Position numbers and translations under genes: made by a program | Part shown: positions 232-30,763 of the stretch, piece after piece | How the letters are laid out: the number at the start of each line of letters is the position of its first letter | Numbering within the stretch: position 1 is the first letter of the stretch | Assembly: GCA_030668875.1 (NCBI GenBank) | Contig: DAOVER010000012.1 | Span: forward strand, 1 to 32,000 | Direction: 5' to 3' | Length of the DNA stretch: 32,000 nucleotides | Source of the DNA: Candidatus Heimdallarchaeota archaeon | Lineage (GTDB): Archaea; Asgardarchaeota; Heimdallarchaeia; Heimdallarchaeales; Heimdallarchaeaceae | The notes under the pieces: model-generated | What the model was told of the DNA's origin: nothing | Databases searched by the model: none | Seen by the model: only the letters and a program-made list of their open reading frames with translations

Positions 232-1755
232 TTAATTACCGGGGAATATACCTAGAATTATTCTAAAACCAGAAGGAACAAGAATCTCTGAAACTACTAT
301 TGCGCCTTCCGTGGAAATATCTATTAAGTTAAAACTGTTTTCAATCGAGGCGGTTTTTTGAGAAGAAATTGTGTTACAATTAACAAAAGCTGTTTTTTCT
401 ACACGCGTACAATAAGCCCTTCCAAGATGTCCGGAAAGGACTAAATTCACTTCTGTATCAATCAACATTCTCAATACATCTCCTGCATCTTCCAAAGCAG
501 AGGTTTCTATCGTATTTGGTATGGGTATCAAGTGGTGATGCATCACTATTGTATGGAATTTATCTTCTGCTTGCATTTTGGTATGATAGACATATCTTAC
601 AAGTCGATTCTGTGTAGTTCTACCTACAACACCTATTTCTGTTTCTGGTGCAGAGGTATTCAACACATAGAAACATGATTCATCTTTTTCAATTGTGTTT
701 TCTGTGTCAAAATATTTGTATAATAGAGTTTCTCCATACCCTCGTAAATCGTTTGGTCCAGGGCAGAAAATCAATTTATCTGAGTAAGGAGTGAATGCTT
801 GAACAGCAGCTTCATAGTCAGCTGATCGCCCCTTTTCAGTCAGATTTCCACAATGTATAATCACATCAGGATTTGTTGATTCAACAAGTTCCATGCCTTT
901 TTTAAATAATTCAAACTGGTCATTGTTGGATGCACCAAAATCAGTACCAGAGAGCTGAGCCATTCTGAGCCATTTACCTCCTGTTGAATTAACCATACGG
1001 AAACGTCTGGTGATGGTTTTTAACTCAGTTCTGATTTCTTTTCCCGTTGTATCTTGTATTTTTACCTTAATCTCTTTTTCTGGAGTAATTTCTACATAAT
1101 TAAATGAACGCTTGCCTCCGCTACGAGTCTTATAACTTGAAGTACTTCCCGCAGATATGATGATAGTATCCTCAACTTTGTAAACATTAGGATGATGTTT
1201 ATGTCCCGTAAAAACCGCATCAATTCCATTATCAAGGAGAATCGAAAGCATATTTCCAGCATCTACAGCATTTGATCTTTCTCTTCCAGTTTTAGGGATT
1301 GGCAGTAAATGATGGTGAAATCCAACAAGCTTTAATTTTGCTTCGCTGTACTTGGACAAAATTTTCTTTGTGTAATCAAGAGCTTCTCTACCAAAACGAC
1401 CATCATCTCTATCAGGGATACAAGAATCTAATCCAATAAACAATATATCATTAGCAAAATCATGAAACTCTCTAGGACCCACCATTTTCTCCCACACCTC
1501 AAAACCTCCACTTCTACTATCATGATTTCCTATAATCCAGTAGGACTTCGGAGAAATTATCTTCTTCCTCAACTTACTAGCTAATTCAAATTCCTCAAAC
1601 AAACCATCTTGAGTTAGATCTCCTGAGAATATAGAGAAATCATGAGGAGTAATATTAATTGAATTTACTGTATTGTCAAAGTCTTTAACCATGAACTGGG
1701 GCCTAGGAGTTATATGGGTATCACTAAAGTGAACAATTCTGATAGGTTCATCCAT
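232..1755 (-). CDS. Tandem calcineurin-like metallophosphoesterase (CpdA/Icc-like phosphodiesterase); second domain degenerate
   Basis: Domain 1 has SDTH, SGDLT, GNHD, HHH and GHKH. Domain 2 has the same layout but reads SGTD, CGNLT, GPND, HHH and GHLG. Confidence 0.85.
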   Translation of the reverse strand: MDEPIRIVHFSDTHITPRPQFMVKDFDNTVNSINITPHDFSIFSGDLTQDGLFEEFELASKLRKKIISPKSYWIIGNHDSRSGGFEVWEKMVGPREFHDFANDILFIGLDSCIPDRDDGRFGREALDYTKKILSKYSEAKLKLVGFHHHLLPIPKTGRERSNAVDAGNMLSILLDNGIDAVFTGHKHHPNVYKVEDTIIISAGSTSSYKTRSGGKRSFNYVEITPEKEIKVKIQDTTGKEIRTELKTITRRFRMVNSTGGKWLRMAQLSGTDFGASNNDQFELFKKGMELVESTNPDVIIHCGNLTEKGRSADYEAAVQAFTPYSDKLIFCPGPNDLRGYGETLLYKYFDTENTIEKDESCFYVLNTSAPETEIGVVGRTTQNRLVRYVYHTKMQAEDKFHTIVMHHHLIPIPNTIETSALEDAGDVLRMLIDTEVNLVLSGHLGRAYCTRVEKTAFVNCNTISSQKTASIENSFNLIDISTEGAIVVSEILVPSGFRIILGIFPGN

Positions 1756-1862
1756 TGTGATAAGTAATAATGTTTAGCTAATTATTTCTTCCGCTAGGGT
1801 TAACATTGTTTTGTTGAGAACTTTCGAAATATTTAACTTTGAATTCAATCTAGATTATTACA

Positions 1863-2246
1863 ATGACTTTGAGAACCTATGAAATGGATGACTCAGTTTC
1901 AAGTGTAATGACAAAAGGAATTTTGTATATCGAATCTAAGAAAAAGCTAGATGAAGCAATACAAATAATGTCTGACTTTGATGTTGGATCTTTAGTTGTA
2001 GCTGAAAAAAATGATGCTGTTGGCATTCTTACTAGTAAAGATATAATTAAGATGATTGCAAAGGGAAAGGAGCTCAAGAGCATTAAAGTAAAAGATATAA
2101 TGCAAGGTCCTCTTATTAGGATATCCGGTTATGAAACAATCTCATCAGCATTATTGAAAATGAAAGAACAGAAGATTAACCATCTCATAGTGGTTGATGG
2201 AGATAAAATAATCGGAATGATTAACCCATTAAATCTTCTAATTTAA
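1863..2246 (+). CDS. Stand-alone CBS-pair (Bateman domain) protein
   Basis: Two CBS repeats: VSSVMTK...VGSLVV...VGILTSKDI and VKDIMQ...INHLIVVD...IIGMI. Confidence 0.9.
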   Translation: MTLRTYEMDDSVSSVMTKGILYIESKKKLDEAIQIMSDFDVGSLVVAEKNDAVGILTSKDIIKMIAKGKELKSIKVKDIMQGPLIRISGYETISSALLKMKEQKINHLIVVDGDKIIGMINPLNLLI

Positions 2247-2255
2247 TGTCGTTTA

Positions 2256-3407
2256 TTGTATTATTTAATAAATAACTTCAAGAGTAGGATTAAACTGAGC
2301 AATAAAAAGGAAAGCCTATCTGCAGATGATGTAAGAAGAAAACAGAAACTAAAAACAATACTGGCTACAATAGGTGAGGGGCTACAGGAAATATTCAAAA
2401 CACATATTCTTGAAAAAACTGGAGAAAAAGCAAATCTTATTTCCATAGATAAGGTGTTTTCAACAGAGAAGGGTACCTCAAAGTCAAGAGTCCATTTTGT
2501 TACATATTCTCTAAATTCTGATGTTGGAGAACATCTTGTAAACGTTGTTGTGAAATTTTCTTCAGATGAGACAAGGTTTGAAAAAGAAATTAGGAATCAT
2601 TCAAAAATTGCAAATGTTTCTAAGATTTTTAGTGGTGTTCATGTGCCGAAGATACTTTACAAAAGCTTACAAAACAGATGTATTATCTATGAAGGCATTG
2701 ACGGGTTAAGTTTTCGTGAAGCAAAACTTGACTTAAAAGATAAAGATTTACTAGCTGGACAAGCTTTAGCAGCTATCCATGGAATTGAAACAGGGAAATT
2801 AGAAGTAGATTCTTACAAAAAACTAGTTTTATACCTTCTTTCAGTTTTGGAGAACCAACAACTGGAAGAAGAAATTCTGGATTTGATGCTACCTTATTTC
2901 AAAGCAATGGAAAAATCAACAGGAGCAACAAGAATTCATGGAGATTACCACCAAGGAAATCTATTATTTTCATCAGAGGATATAGAATTAGTACAAAATA
3001 GTCTAGATATAACAAACATAAATGTGAGAGTATATGTTATTGATCCTGAATTTATCATGGAAGGAAGAGACAGAAATGAAGACATTGGAACATTCTTTGC
3101 AAAGCCATGTATAAAGGAATTTCAGAAGACAGGTAATATTAAAAACTCAAAAAGCAAAATCAATTCATTTATTGAAGGTTATAACAAGGTTCTAAAGATG
3201 ATAGGATCTGATCAATTGTTAAGTGAAATGTATCCTTCAGGTTTAACAATAGATTTTCATATGGCTTCTTATGTTCTTTATGACCTTGTAGATAAAGTTC
3301 TAAGTAATCAATTAACAACTTATTCTGAAGAAATAAAGGATAAAGTGAAATTATTGAAAATTATGCTGAAAGAAGGACCTTTTCAAAACAATGGAATGTC
3401 TATTTGA
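2256..3407 (+). CDS. APH/choline-kinase-like phosphotransferase (protein-kinase-like fold); start uncertain (TTG)
   Basis: VVVKF ATP-binding Lys, Brenner-type catalytic motif HGDYHQGN, and VIDPE metal-binding (DFG-equivalent) motif. Confidence 0.8.
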   Translation: MYYLINNFKSRIKLSNKKESLSADDVRRKQKLKTILATIGEGLQEIFKTHILEKTGEKANLISIDKVFSTEKGTSKSRVHFVTYSLNSDVGEHLVNVVVKFSSDETRFEKEIRNHSKIANVSKIFSGVHVPKILYKSLQNRCIIYEGIDGLSFREAKLDLKDKDLLAGQALAAIHGIETGKLEVDSYKKLVLYLLSVLENQQLEEEILDLMLPYFKAMEKSTGATRIHGDYHQGNLLFSSEDIELVQNSLDITNINVRVYVIDPEFIMEGRDRNEDIGTFFAKPCIKEFQKTGNIKNSKSKINSFIEGYNKVLKMIGSDQLLSEMYPSGLTIDFHMASYVLYDLVDKVLSNQLTTYSEEIKDKVKLLKIMLKEGPFQNNGMSI

Positions 3408-12220: not shown

Positions 12221-12549
12221 TGAACGAGGCGAAAAGGCAACTTCGGCTTTAGCTGAGGAACCTCCTGACTCCAATAAGTAGATGTAGATGTAAATCTACC
12301 ATGCGAGAGTGTGGCTCTTGGAACAGAAACGACACGCCCTTTATTCAGAGACAATGATGCGATACCGAATGTGGTGACACAAATCGAGATAAATTGCTGA
12401 GGAGAATAAAGGATACGATGAAACGGCCAATCATCTTGGAGCAAACTTGAATAGGGTTCATCTGAACCGGGTAAAGTGCTTAGATGAATGTTGCCGGGAA
12501 GGTCCTTGACGGCTTCCTAACAAAATCAGGGGTATTTTCGCGACGTTCA
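12221..12549 (+). ncRNA. rnpB: Archaeal RNase P RNA
   Basis: P1 TGAACG..GCGAAAA / TTTTCGC..CGTTCA; P2 GGCAAC/GTTGCC; P3 hairpin; CR-I GAGGAACCTCCTGA pairs with CR-V AACAAAATCAGGGGTAT (P4); P5 CTCCAA/TTGGAG; P8 and P9 with GNRA loops; ACAGAAAC; P12 CCTTTATTC/GAATAAAGG; GATGAAACGGC; GCTTAGATGAATG. Confidence 0.93.
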
Positions 12550-12557: not shown

Positions 12558-12663
12558 AAAATGCATAAATCCGACTATTGTTTTTGTGCAAAATTATGAC
12601 CTACTCGGTAAGTTTATTAAATTAAGAAAGTAATCGTATTAAGAATAGAAAAGGAGTGCTCGC

Positions 12664-14418
12664 ATGTTAAGGAGGTTATTGTACAGTAGAATGCCAGTCG
12701 CTGTTTTTGGATTTATTGTCCTGATAGCAACGGTTGTTTTATCATCTTCTGTACAGTTACCAATGGCTCAAGAATCTCAGAATGAATCAGCAATTGCAGG
12801 TTTTATGGACCTTGAAAATTCCATTTTTAATTGTTCTTTGAACACTGATAACATAATTAGAGGGGAAGATGATTTAGTAATATTTTTCCGGTTCACTTAT
12901 GAAAACCTCACTTATATACCTGATTCCAATATATATTACAATATATCGAATTCTTTAGATGAAAAAATCTACGAGCATAATCTAATAGTGAATACATCAC
13001 TACAATTTAATGAAACAGTTATTTGGTCAACTTTTAACAGTCAAGTAGCAGGTAATTTTTCCGTGACAGCAGTAGCTAATAGTACAGCAACGGGATCAGT
13101 AACTTCAATCAATCATTTTGAATTAGCTGTGTTACCTTTTGGTAAAGTAAGAATGTCTTTCCCTTTCAATCCAGTTTTACTTATAAGAAATCAGAATAAT
13201 GATGTTGAGTGTACGATTACCAATACAGGTGGAACAACGATCACAAACGTTACAGTTACAAGTGAGATTCATAAAACTGGCACTGTGGGCTCAGTAACTA
13301 GATCACATGCAATACCAGAGTTGACTCTGGAAGAGGGAGTCGAATACAATGGTTACATAAGCTTCTTTCCTGATACTTATCTATACCAAAAACATTCATT
13401 TTCTATCACATATAGAACTATTGACGAACCTGAACAAGAACGGACACATCTAAGTGACCCCCTTGAAATAATTGTGATGCCCAATATAACGATTAATGAG
13501 TATGAGATTCCAGTTAATGCAACTGTAGGGGAAACATATAGAATTACGTATAGCGTGACAAATTATGAGGGAATAAATCTAAATATTCTTCCTTATGTAA
13601 GAGTTCAAAACTCCAGTTTCATGCTTTTTGATGAAATGAATCTTGGAAAATCAATTGAGGTTGGTCAAGGTTATCACTTCTATTCAATTGAGGGAGAACC
13701 TCAAATTGATACTTTACAGCAGTATTTGTTTTTCAAAATAGAACTAGAATGGGAAACTGTTTCAGAGACTAAATGGTACTCAAGTCTTTTACCACTTGCT
13801 GTAGTATTAATCACAATCTCTCCTGATGATTCAAGTGTAAACTTCTTTGATCCTATAGTAACATATAGCTTAATATTTGGAGCAATAGGAATCGGAATCT
13901 TTTATTTCTCAAGAGATATGTTCAAAAATATTGCAAAACGGGTTAGAGGGTCCTCTGAACGCGCTTTCCCTGAAGTAACTTATCCTTTAAATAAAGTTAT
14001 TCTTGATGGAAGTAACATCGCGTGGGAAGAAAAAAACACCTTAGATAAACCAAAGATAAGTAATATTGAAAATATGATAAATAGATTAAGCAAAGTTAAT
14101 TTCAACAAGATAATAACTGTTGCAGATGCAGCTCTAAGATATCAGATAGACAATCAAAGAAGACTAGATAAATTAGTCAAAGAGGGAGCAATGAAGATGT
14201 TACCTGCAAGAGTAGATGGTGATAAATTCATTCTACGTATAGCTGAAGAAGAGAAAGCAATGATTGTGAGCAATGATATGTTTAAGGAATTCAGAGAAAT
14301 GAAGAAATGGATAGATCAAAGAAGGATTCCTTATACAATTCTTGATGGTGAAGTATATCTTCACCCAACAGCTGTACAACCAGTTGAAAAGGAAGAAGAG
14401 GAAGAAATATCAGACTAA
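12664..14418 (+). CDS. Single-pass membrane protein: signal peptide, extracellular Ig/CARDB-like beta domains, TM helix, cytoplasmic Zc3h12a/Regnase-type PIN (NYN) ribonuclease
   Basis: N-terminal hydrophobic signal; beta-rich region with 12 N-x-S/T sequons; TM IVTYSLIFGAIGIGIFYF followed by basic SRDMFKNIAKRVR; C-terminal ILDGSNIA, VADAALRY, VDGDKFIL, IVSNDMF and RRIPY motifs. Confidence 0.85.
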   Translation: MLRRLLYSRMPVAVFGFIVLIATVVLSSSVQLPMAQESQNESAIAGFMDLENSIFNCSLNTDNIIRGEDDLVIFFRFTYENLTYIPDSNIYYNISNSLDEKIYEHNLIVNTSLQFNETVIWSTFNSQVAGNFSVTAVANSTATGSVTSINHFELAVLPFGKVRMSFPFNPVLLIRNQNNDVECTITNTGGTTITNVTVTSEIHKTGTVGSVTRSHAIPELTLEEGVEYNGYISFFPDTYLYQKHSFSITYRTIDEPEQERTHLSDPLEIIVMPNITINEYEIPVNATVGETYRITYSVTNYEGINLNILPYVRVQNSSFMLFDEMNLGKSIEVGQGYHFYSIEGEPQIDTLQQYLFFKIELEWETVSETKWYSSLLPLAVVLITISPDDSSVNFFDPIVTYSLIFGAIGIGIFYFSRDMFKNIAKRVRGSSERAFPEVTYPLNKVILDGSNIAWEEKNTLDKPKISNIENMINRLSKVNFNKIITVADAALRYQIDNQRRLDKLVKEGAMKMLPARVDGDKFILRIAEEEKAMIVSNDMFKEFREMKKWIDQRRIPYTILDGEVYLHPTAVQPVEKEEEEEISD

Positions 14419-14463: not shown

Positions 14464-14554
14464 TGAACATAATATTATGTGATTACAAAAACTAAAAAGC
14501 TGTCATAACCGAGTCATTATAAAGCATTTTATTTATATTATAGGTGAACATAAT
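14464..14554 (+). promoter_or_regulatory. Putative operator/promoter of the wHTH gene
   Basis: Perfect 14-bp palindrome ACATAATATTATGT (14467-14480); TGAACATAAT occurs at 14464-14473 and again at 14545-14554 over the SD/start; TATA-like TTATAAA lies between. Confidence 0.45.
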
Positions 14555-15248
14555 GAATATGGACCATGGGTATATTGATATTCCATACAGTAACTTACCT
14601 ACATTAGATGACAGTCTACCTAATGATTACTTCTACAGTAATGAGTATGATTATCTAACAATCCAGGAAGTCCAGTTGCTTCTGACTCTATCTGATTCTC
14701 AGATATCTTATTCCTTTTCAGGCTTGAGAAAGAGAACATCCTTACATCAACACAAATTAACAAAAGCGATAAGAAGATTACAAGATCGTAATTTTCTTTC
14801 AAAGAACGAGAATAGTTCTTACGAATTAACTGATGATGGAAGCATCTACACTAGAAAACTCCTGCAAGAACTGGTAAACAAGAAAGCAGTCAATTCAACG
14901 AAAATACCCAATATTTCTTTAATAAAGAAATTACGCACCACACCTTCTTTAGAAAAAAGAAAAATAGCTGTGGTATTAGAAAAACGATGGTTTAGTAATT
15001 ATCGCTTTCTTTATAGAAGAGAGATAGGAGATTTAATAGAACTTTGTTGGGAAGATAATGAGAAAAATCAATGTCATGTATATTTAAATTCTGAAGGTGA
15101 GATTCAGATCGAATGTTCATCACTCAATCATAAATCAAATGAAACTCAATTTATTATAAACTGGGTTAGTGAAGAGATTCAAAAACATGCTGATGTTGAG
15201 GTACTGATAGAGGAGGAAGACGAATACACTAAGATACCTTATAATTAA
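14553..15248 (+). CDS. Winged-helix domain protein with an uncharacterised C-terminal alpha/beta domain
   Basis: SFSGLRKRTSLHQHKLTKAIRRLQDRNFLSKNENSSYELTDDG is a wHTH pattern. ATG 14553 is chosen for its spacing from SD-like GGTGA (the ORF track uses GTG 14544). Confidence 0.75.
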   Translation: MNMDHGYIDIPYSNLPTLDDSLPNDYFYSNEYDYLTIQEVQLLLTLSDSQISYSFSGLRKRTSLHQHKLTKAIRRLQDRNFLSKNENSSYELTDDGSIYTRKLLQELVNKKAVNSTKIPNISLIKKLRTTPSLEKRKIAVVLEKRWFSNYRFLYRREIGDLIELCWEDNEKNQCHVYLNSEGEIQIECSSLNHKSNETQFIINWVSEEIQKHADVEVLIEEEDEYTKIPYN

Positions 15249-16734: not shown

Positions 16735-17751
16735 ATGAAAGTTTATTTATCAAAAGCAATTAGAATTAAGGGAAAGGAGTGGAGTATTGCTTGTGATAGC
16801 ACAAATTCAAAATATTATTCTCTAGTTTTTTATAGTCATGCACACTCTGACCATATTCCGAGAAAATTGCCAGCCACTGATATAATAAGCTCATTGGAAA
16901 CAAAATCATTATTAAAAAATTTCACATCTAATTTTTCAGAAGGACGATTCTTTGAAGATTACAAAATAGGTGAAACAAGTTTCAAACAACAATCAGCTGG
17001 ACACATTATTGGTTCAACAGCACTGAAAATCAAATCAAGTGAAGGTACTTTAATCTATACAGGCGATGTTTCGATTAGAAATAAAGGATTCATTGAACCT
17101 TTTAAACCTGACAAATGTGATACATTAATAATTGAAAGCACATTTGGTTTGTCGCAATATGAGTTTCCCAAATACGAACAAGTTATCAAAGAAACCCAGG
17201 AGTCAATAGCTGAAAATCTAGATAATAACACACCAGTAGTTTTAATGGGTTATGCTTTAGGGAAGGCTCAGATGCTTTATCATGCTTTTTCTCATCTGTC
17301 AGAAAATGTAATTTTGCACGGAGCTAACTACAAAATCAATTCCTTACTCAAGTCTGAAGGCATAAAGGGGGCTGTTGATTGTGTTTCCTACCAACATGCA
17401 AAGGAAAAAGGTTTGATGGAAAAGGAAGGAAATTGGATATTATTTGCACCATTAAAATCGGGTAGAGATGATTTTTATTCCTATTTGAGAAATAAATTTG
17501 GTGCAGTACTCTATGCATTTAGTGGATGGTGTATATCATCTAATTATAAGTACAGAATGAATGTTGATTATAGTGTCCCCATAAGTGATCATGCTGATTT
17601 CTCAGAACTCATAGAGATATGTGAGTCTTGCAATCCCGATAGAATATATACAATCTATGGGTCAAACATAGCATTTGCAGCTGAACTAAGACGTCGTGGA
17701 TTTAATGCTAATCCTTTGTCTAAGCAGACACTACTGGACTCTTACTTTTAG
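16735..17751 (+). CDS. Metallo-beta-lactamase/beta-CASP nuclease (ligase-associated exonuclease / SNM1-like)
   Basis: HAHSDH, AGHIIGS, YTGD, ESTFG and SDHADF motifs. Confidence 0.88.
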   Translation: MKVYLSKAIRIKGKEWSIACDSTNSKYYSLVFYSHAHSDHIPRKLPATDIISSLETKSLLKNFTSNFSEGRFFEDYKIGETSFKQQSAGHIIGSTALKIKSSEGTLIYTGDVSIRNKGFIEPFKPDKCDTLIIESTFGLSQYEFPKYEQVIKETQESIAENLDNNTPVVLMGYALGKAQMLYHAFSHLSENVILHGANYKINSLLKSEGIKGAVDCVSYQHAKEKGLMEKEGNWILFAPLKSGRDDFYSYLRNKFGAVLYAFSGWCISSNYKYRMNVDYSVPISDHADFSELIEICESCNPDRIYTIYGSNIAFAAELRRRGFNANPLSKQTLLDSYF

Positions 17752-30674: not shown

Positions 30675-30763
30675 TGGAGCCTCAGAGGGGATTCGAACCC
30701 CTGCCCTGTGACTTTCTCGATAGTTTACGAGATCACTGCTCTGGCCATCTGAGCTACCGAGGC
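30675..30763 (-). tRNA. tRNA-Thr(CGT) with a 12-nt intron at 37/38 (30714-30725), CCA encoded
   Basis: Minus strand: GCCTCGG/CTGAGGC acceptor stem, GTGAT-CTCGTA-[AACTATCGAGAA]-A-GTCAC; exon CTCG pairs with intron CGAG to form the BHB central helix; T arm AGGGG-TTCGAAT-CCCCT. Confidence 0.92.

Follow-up and report, generated by a model that had tools for sequence, protein, structure and literature searches.

A predicted membrane-anchored NYN ribonuclease with a large ectodomain, conserved in an order of Heimdall-group archaea

Heimdall-group archaea are among the closest known relatives of eukaryotes. We are aware of no archaeal membrane-bound endoribonuclease that has been characterised, and of no membrane-tethered decay RNase of the RNase Y or RNase E type in archaea. 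The eukaryotic proteins Regnase-1/MCPIP1 (ZC3H12A), ZC3H12B-D, KHNYN and N4BP1 have their Pfam family and fold in common with the nuclease described here, and the PIN domain of Regnase-1 requires head-to-tail dimerisation for activity. The prokaryotic branch of this family, PF11977, is evolutionarily separate and its function, also in bacteria, is given as unknown (Matelska et al. 2017, PMC5499597). In this work we analysed 32,000 nucleotides of a Candidatus Heimdallarchaeota archaeon (contig DAOVER010000012.1, positions 1 to 32,000; hereafter the window), in which one gene codes for P0001, a protein predicted to join such a nuclease to a transmembrane helix and a large ectodomain. An earlier note on this DNA, made from the sequence alone, knew of no such layout in archaea; likewise, literature searches on this nuclease family in Asgard and other archaea and on membrane-bound forms of it yielded no paper in which the architecture is described, and the NCBIfam and PADLOC libraries gave no match for P0001. 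What is new is apparently the conserved architecture, whereas its nuclease family was already known.

Layout, topology and distribution of P0001

The open reading frame (ORF) at 12664..14418 on the forward strand, with coordinates exactly as given in the earlier note, encodes a protein of 584 amino acids (aa). Its predicted layout comprises an N-terminal signal sequence, three beta-sandwich domains, one transmembrane helix with basic residues next to the membrane and, in the cytoplasm, a PF11977 NYN domain. A genome profile search identified exactly one PF11977 gene in the genome of the window (65.7 bits). The features of the gene, with AlphaFold2 confidence as predicted local distance difference test (pLDDT) and the ratio of non-synonymous to synonymous substitution rates (dN/dS) where they apply, are the following:

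12664..14418, +: whole gene, predicted type-I membrane NYN ribonuclease P0001 (ORF; >60 full-length homologues, 40-92% identity)
12664..12768, +: N-terminal signal peptide or signal anchor, aa 1-35 (hydropathy mean up to 2.5; conserved in the family)
12820..13128, +: ectodomain domain 1, aa 53-155, macroglobulin/Ig-like beta-sandwich (AlphaFold2, pLDDT >90)
13147..13476, +: ectodomain domain 2, aa 162-271, CARDB-like beta-sandwich with an NTGGTT motif (AlphaFold2 model)
13486..13821, +: ectodomain domain 3, aa 275-386, membrane-proximal beta-sandwich and most variable part (AlphaFold2 model; dN/dS 0.11-0.51)
13852..13926, +: transmembrane helix, aa 397-421, ending in the juxtamembrane motif Y414-F-S-R-D418 (hydropathy; helix in both AlphaFold2 models)
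13927..13986, +: basic linker, predicted cytoplasmic, aa 422-441, with conserved F-P-E..Y-P (alignments; pLDDT <50 at aa 428-432)
13987..14364, +: Zc3h12a-type NYN (PIN-like) predicted ribonuclease domain, aa 442-567 (PF11977, AlphaFold2 and Foldseek)
14374..14415, +: acidic low-complexity C-terminal tail, aa 571-584, differing between species (pLDDT <50)

Hydropathy was determined by a Kyte-Doolittle scan of 19 residues, which detected only two hydrophobic segments in P0001, at aa 8-30 and at aa 398-416 (nt 13855-13911). The signal region consists of a basic MLRRLLYSR followed by hydrophobic aa 10-30, and the second segment is directly followed by RDMFKNIAKRVRGSSER. A second transmembrane helix at aa 370-386 was considered and rejected, as its hydropathy was below the threshold and it forms a beta strand in the AlphaFold2 model; since this is the last strand of domain 3, the protein is left with a single membrane pass after the signal sequence. 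All 12 N-x-S/T sequons of P0001 (aa 40, 56, 81, 93, 110, 116, 131, 139, 195, 274, 285 and 316) lie before the transmembrane helix, compared with 5.8 expected from composition, and none lies after it, where 0.7 was expected. Counted over 45 family members, sequons numbered 537 in the ectodomains, where 247 were expected, and 23 in the cytoplasmic parts, where 42 were expected. The charges around the helix of these members were also uneven, with a mean of 3.8 Lys+Arg in the 15 residues after it versus 0.5 before it, and of 1.1 flanking Asp+Glu after it versus 2.3 before it. Because of these asymmetries of sequons and charge, the NYN nuclease is predicted to be cytoplasmic. Hydropathy and the sequon count thus bore out the N-terminal signal (peptide or anchor), the 12 sequons with none past the helix, and the single helix with a basic stop-transfer segment that had been described in the earlier note, and its type-I topology with the nuclease inside is supported, as a prediction, by the sequons, the positive-inside rule and the AlphaFold2 helix.

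Conservation extends to the cytoplasmic end of the helix and to the linker, given that across the order Y414 is kept in 38/46 sequences, F415 in 34/46 and D418 in 31/46, and that the YFSRD and FPE..YP segments are both retained across its families. These alignments hint at a defined coupling near the membrane, more than a floppy or passive tether. Taken as a model, the gene product is a conserved single-copy type-I membrane glycoprotein of this Heimdall-group order, with its NYN domain ~25-45 residues from the inner membrane face and, by prediction, a catalytically complete Zc3h12a-type endoribonuclease.

The ectodomain was modelled with AlphaFold2 (aa 30-422, alignment of 46 sequences) with a mean pLDDT of 91.4. 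As a result, the beta-rich, Ig-like region of ~350 aa that had been noticed in the sequence resolved, together with structure searches, into three beta-sandwich domains, which span aa ~53-155, 162-271 and 275-386; the transmembrane helix comes after the third. Domain 1 carries seven sequons, a near-invariant RGEDDL motif and G67, which is invariant across the order; it superimposes on the alpha2-macroglobulin MG domain 2p9r (VIA-align Z 12.7, root-mean-square deviation 2.0 Å over 97 residues). Domain 2 showed weak matches to Pfam CARDB and DUF7507, and its N187 and G189 are invariant. Among PDB structures the Foldseek neighbours of the ectodomain were tandem macroglobulin or Ig-like arrays, and the ESM Atlas neighbours, those of domain 2 included, were archaeal CARDB, NPCBM_assoc and "adhesin-like surface protein" clusters. 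No specific relative of the ectodomain was found by Foldseek against the PDB, in the ESM Atlas or by a wide VIA-align search, which returned only generic Ig, macroglobulin, CARDB and glycoside-hydrolase accessory domains.

A word-indexed search retrieved >60 full-length proteins of ~560-650 aa with 40-92% identity, whose named sources are Heimdallarchaeota, Heimdallarchaeaceae, Heimdallarchaeum, or metagenome-assembled genomes (MAGs) labelled as unclassified Asgard or Thorarchaeota; Candidatus Heimdallarchaeota LC_2 is among the carriers of a full-length homologue. Database annotation of the homologues was only "hypothetical" or "NYN domain-containing". In an exhaustive search of 1.8 billion representative proteins, 33 clusters matched at E <1e-30 and, truncated sequences aside, all of them had a hydrophobic N-terminus, a region of ~350 aa, a strong transmembrane segment and the NYN domain 24-45 residues further on. 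When 399 Asgard genomes were searched, full-length matches were obtained in 25/29 genomes of the family of the window (f1), 1/1 of f2, 2/3 of f3 and 10/12 of f4, and outside the order the NYN domain alone matched. With a profile of the ectodomain only, the three-domain ectodomain was found exclusively in the order and always within frames of ~560-600 aa (82 genomes of the class), and single CARDB-like domains elsewhere in the class gave weak matches only. An ectodomain with another tail was detected neither in the 1.8-billion-protein representative search nor in the 82 genomes of the class. The possibility raised beforehand, that homologues would usually lack the ectodomain, was not the case in these family-wide searches, and the ectodomain-NYN fusion appears to be obligate in this order.

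Pairwise dN/dS among orthologues was calculated according to Nei-Gojobori. Values for the NYN domain were 0.03-0.06 (0.10 in one near-identical pair), and those for the ectodomain were 0.12-0.35 in domain 1, 0.09-0.41 in domain 2 and 0.11-0.51 in domain 3; wherever dS was usable, the ectodomain ratio was below 1 for all domains and pairs. Both halves of the protein are under purifying selection, the outer half being three- to ten-fold more relaxed; between families, identity is 15-17% in the ectodomain versus 40-45% in the NYN domain. With a pLDDT of 91, dN/dS values of 0.1-0.5 and conserved sequons and motifs, the ectodomain is probably functional and not a spacer.

The nuclease domain and its relatives

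An AlphaFold2 model of the cytoplasmic part, based on an alignment of 72 relatives, reached a mean pLDDT of 88 overall and values of 93-98 over the nuclease. In it, a long helix (aa 397-430) is connected to an alpha/beta domain (aa 444-567) by a short linker of low confidence. PF11977 matched aa 442-563 with an E-value of 5.7e-17 and 62.3 bits, the cut-off being 23. When the model was compared with the PDB by Foldseek, the first 22 matches were all ZC3H12C, ZC3H12B, Regnase-1/MCPIP1 or KHNYN (E 1e-8 to 2e-6; TM score by target 0.58-0.73), next followed by metallonuclease domains of protein-only RNase P (PRORP; E 2e-6 to 1e-4). This order agrees with the placement of PF11977 in the same PIN-like group as PRORP (Matelska et al. 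2017, PMC5499597). The assignment of the C-terminal domain to the PIN-NYN class in the earlier note was hence confirmed at the level of family and predicted fold. The site residues are:

14005-14007, +: D448, with N451, in ILDGSN (aa 446-451)
14125-14127, +: D488
14221-14223, +: D520, with D518, in VDGDKF (aa 517-522)
14275-14277, +: D538, with S536 and N537, in VSND (aa 535-538)

D448, N451, D488, D520, N537 and D538 are invariant in 46/46 sequences of the membrane family and S/T536 is universal; R492, K511 and R525 are further invariant basic residues. When ZC3H12C and KHNYN were aligned by HMMER, their IDGSN motif coincided with D448 and N451, the second Asp of their "DDRF" with D520, and their "SND" with S536-N537-D538. 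The eukaryotic "DD" is aligned with G519-D520, so that the second Asp alone is kept, and D518, present in 31/46 family members, lies two residues before D520. The claim that the IDGSN/YDD/SND site is intact therefore holds for the acidic site as such, but not for YDD, whose first Asp is Gly or Ala here. Since Ala is also the commonest residue at this position in 26 aligned soluble or other NYN relatives (Ala 19, Asp 4), the form of the site is D-x-D plus an extra invariant Asp after strand 2. From the alignment, D518 and the invariant D488 may be stand-ins for the missing first Asp. A CCCH zinc finger is absent, because the Cys residues of P0001 are only at aa 57 and 183 and none follows aa 183, and no zinc-finger Pfam match was obtained.

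Close kinship with Regnase proper was not upheld. In addition to the lack of a CCCH finger, human KHNYN and ZC3H12A-C scored 21-27 bits against the NYN domain versus 60-100 bits for soluble prokaryotic NYN proteins, and the domain is best classified, on these scores, as a member of the prokaryotic branch of PF11977 and not as a Regnase. A tree calculated from 145 NYN domains groups the membrane family as one clade on a long stem (Shimodaira-Hasegawa-like approximate likelihood ratio test support 99), and support at deeper nodes is 13-66.

Zc3h12a-type NYN domains are common in Asgard archaea and occur in several contexts. In other Asgard lineages NYN is the C-terminal domain of TPR-repeat proteins (L023 4906-6420, P0221) and of a STAND/AAA NTPase of 891 aa (P0112). 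Many genera of the Asgard family f31 encode soluble NYN proteins of 165-214 aa (L014 5911-6408, L015 5364-5879, L016 5431-6075) with an N-terminal C-x2-C...H-x3-C zinc finger, which recalls the pairing in Regnase in reverse order. These ORFs were considered as short N-terminally anchored forms and rejected, as they have no hydrophobic segment and the zinc finger is at the N-terminus.

Two proteins from other archaea carry a transmembrane helix and an NYN domain under different ectodomains. A Promethearchaeota MAG protein (P0218/P0130) is composed of a signal peptide, a PQQ-type beta-propeller, a transmembrane helix and NYN, with all eight of its sequons before the helix, and a Thermofilaceae MAG protein (P0110) of a signal peptide, a ~220-aa ectodomain, a transmembrane helix, a coiled-coil-like stretch and NYN. 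Both NYN domains are placed outside the membrane-family clade. Since that of the propeller protein nests among soluble NYN domains, the fusion of transmembrane helix and NYN probably arose more than once; the number of independent fusions is tentative on the basis of this tree.

Genomic neighbourhood and expression

The features around the gene are the following:

12224-12546, +: archaeal RNase P RNA gene (rnpB; Rfam RF00373, 144 bits), 118 nt upstream of the NYN gene and co-directional
12613..12621, +: TATA-like box TTTATTAAA, ~47 nt before the ATG, conserved in the orthologous spacers of three genera
12653-12656, +: GGAG Shine-Dalgarno-like element (sequence)
14544-15248, +: 234-aa protein without Pfam match, with the look of a MarR/HTH_5-type winged helix (ESM Atlas features 0.95)
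16735-17751, +: 338-aa short beta-CASP/metallo-beta-lactamase-like hydrolase (weak RMMBL match, E 1e-3)

A run of seven T follows rnpB, which together with the conserved TTTATTAAA box suggests that the NYN gene has its own promoter and is a separate transcription unit. The tandem of rnpB and the NYN gene was kept in 5/5 sampled genera of the family and not in other families of the order; in relatives, rnpB is located at L020 8009-8323, L024 2095-2419, L026 3332-3654 and L027 7422-7736. The position of rnpB beside an NYN gene is curious, as PRORP has its closest relative in the Zc3h12a NYN fold, but the pairing may be plain synteny. In L008 the longest ORF start (1306-3252), corresponding to the database protein P0015 of 648 aa, overlaps rnpB (L008 1052-1367), and P0015 therefore probably bears a spurious N-terminal extension of ~65 aa.

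The syntenic block of the family comprises rnpB, the NYN gene, a MarR-like winged helix-turn-helix (wHTH) gene, proteasome beta and alpha genes, the beta-CASP-like hydrolase, which is kept behind the proteasome genes across the whole family, and an M48 peptidase. The winged-helix gene, whose product gave a weak match to PADLOC WH_III-A (E 1.5e-6), adjoins the NYN gene throughout the family; it is inverted in one genus and found nearby in a second family. Neighbours differ by family, being proteasome and wHTH genes in f1 and f2, PAC2 and a Ras-like GTPase in f3, and in f4 either an alkaline phosphatase or a PIN_12-like protein with AlaX. The neighbours are of the housekeeping kind and no defence-island context was found around the gene.

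In four metatranscriptome runs from marine sediment and cold seep (X16, X18, X20 and X21), rnpB was covered at high depth (window 12260-12542), and one rnpB contig was near-identical, with 2 differences in 273 nt. The same runs yielded only three short low-depth contigs on the NYN ORF, from relatives of ~87% identity. Elsewhere in the window, the tRNA-Thr(CGT) gene at 30675-30763 on the reverse strand is 89 nt long by ARAGORN and therefore probably contains an intron.

Candidate functions and comparison with known systems

The reading that we favour, with a confidence somewhat below even, is that P0001 is a receptor-like, proximity-controlled, membrane-tethered RNase. According to this proposal, binding of a ligand, contact with a surface or lateral clustering would define the state of the ectodomain, and this state would determine how concentrated the NYN domains are locally or how they are oriented; they would then cut RNA at the membrane in a metal-dependent manner, for instance mRNAs under translation at the translocon. 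The NYN domain would thus cleave RNA at the inner membrane face, and the ectodomain would matter for that. We favour it because a large ectodomain under selection is needless for mere anchoring, because elsewhere unrelated ectodomains have been combined with this effector, so that the logic of sensor and effector recurs, and because the juxtamembrane segment is conserved and the Regnase-1 PIN domain is known to need dimerisation. By analogy, an IRE1-like gating of the RNase is plausible. A homodimer prediction with two copies of the transmembrane helix plus NYN, run without controls, scored 0.00 and speaks neither for nor against dimerisation.

Several observations weigh against this proposal. 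The neighbourhoods in the families of the order revealed neither an operon partner common to all of them nor a downstream signalling component, and structure searches returned generic surface beta-sandwiches as the ectodomain folds, with no recognisable ligand site. At the position equivalent to D225 of Regnase-1, the first Asp of the "DD" pair, the membrane family has Gly in 37/46 sequences and Ala in 9/46. Pfam searches identified no zinc finger or other RNA-binding domain in P0001 that would account for substrate selection. RNase activity, ligand binding and clustering-gated activation, including the dimerisation by an outside cue put forward in the earlier note, are proposals, and most of the same data also fit a constitutive membrane-localised RNase.

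Such an enzyme, a housekeeping endoribonuclease for decay or processing that would do in archaea what RNase Y or RNase E does in bacteria, is the main rival, and we regard it as possible although rather doubtful. The ectodomain would here only anchor, stabilise or position the protein, or would have a separate surface role. A single-copy gene that is near-universal in the order and lies in a syntenic housekeeping block (rnpB, wHTH, proteasome, beta-CASP) fits it equally well, as do the extreme purifying selection on NYN and the lack of partner or signalling genes in the neighbourhoods. However, a simple anchor needs no glycosylated three-domain ectodomain of ~360 aa under purifying selection, and both the conserved juxtamembrane motif and the different ectodomains joined to transmembrane-NYN modules in other archaea speak for more than anchoring.

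An antiviral or abortive-infection sensor, in which a fast-evolving ectodomain would detect virus attachment or envelope damage and the RNase would hit viral or host RNA, is unlikely. Its appeal comes from the much faster evolution of the ectodomain compared with the nuclease, seen in identity between families and in dN/dS, from P0112, whose fusion of NYN with a STAND NTPase is of a kind typically seen in conflict systems, and from the antiviral action of eukaryotic Regnase-1, KHNYN and N4BP1 (PMC5499597). Nevertheless, no PADLOC model matches P0001, the neighbourhood is stably syntenic and of the housekeeping type instead of a variable defence island, the gene occurs once per genome in nearly the whole order, and ectodomain dN/dS stays below 1 throughout.

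We consider it even less probable that the C-terminal domain is a nuclease-dead or non-RNase tail, which would only bind RNA or protein or act on another substrate such as DNA. The replaced first Asp of the eukaryotic pair and the lack of an accessory RNA-binding domain point in that direction; however, all 46 sequences have the same six polar or acidic residues in the site, D-x-D is also the commonest form among the 26 soluble or other relatives, and the low dN/dS of NYN fits an enzyme. An assembly or annotation artefact, that is, a chimera of a surface-protein gene and an NYN gene, is refuted by the same unbroken frame of ~560-620 aa in dozens of independent assemblies, including the closed single-contig genomes G015 and G016.

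As a conserved single-copy surface glycoprotein with an intact Regnase-type nuclease on its predicted inner side, P0001 is a concrete candidate, open to testing, for either membrane-localised RNA decay or direct receptor-to-RNA signalling in the closest kin of eukaryotes. The varied ectodomains on one transmembrane-NYN module in other archaea suggest a general design of sensor and effector that has been undescribed so far. An activity assay would be straightforward, as the soluble domain has only ~150 aa and its model is of high confidence. More speculatively, and in our view not probable, Heimdall-group archaea would possess a direct outside-to-RNA device in which the ectodomain gates NYN by induced proximity, and archaea would have built this design more than once, placing three Ig domains, a beta-propeller or another ectodomain on NYN; if true, this would be a prokaryotic counterpart of the logic of IRE1 and RNase L by analogy and not by ancestry.

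Among known systems, soluble prokaryotic PF11977 proteins are the nearest sequence relatives of the nuclease and have the D-x-D motif and D488 in common with it but, whether single-domain, TPR-, zinc-finger- or STAND-linked, they lack the signal peptide, the ectodomain and the transmembrane helix. Of the Regnase-1 residues, D141, N144, D226, S242 and D244 have kept equivalents in P0001 (D448, N451, D520, S/T536 and D538), D225 corresponds to Gly, and the invariant D488 behind strand 2 is additional; the correspondence was derived from the ZC3H12C and KHNYN alignments. P0001 further differs from the eukaryotic group in being membrane-anchored, in having an ectodomain and in the absence of CCCH finger, UBA, KH and CUE domains. 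PRORP provides the next-best structural match after the Zc3h12a proteins, although P0001 has no PPR or zinc-binding domains and its genome keeps an RNA-based RNase P. Bacterial RNase Y, with its N-terminal transmembrane helix, and RNase E, with its amphipathic helix, are like P0001 endoribonucleases at the cytoplasmic membrane face, but they have other catalytic folds and no large extracytoplasmic domain. IRE1 and RNase L are RNases that become active when their sensor domains drive oligomerisation, and P0001 may work in a similar way. With IRE1 (and RNase L), P0001 has in common, by prediction, a type-I single-pass layout with a sensor-like part outside the cytoplasm and the RNase inside. The conceptual likeness to IRE1 proposed in the earlier note thus stands as far as layout and a different RNase fold are concerned; Pfam finds no kinase, pseudokinase or KEN domain in P0001, whose cytoplasmic part consists of linker and NYN with an unrelated RNase fold, and the likeness is best seen as one of analogy and not of homology.

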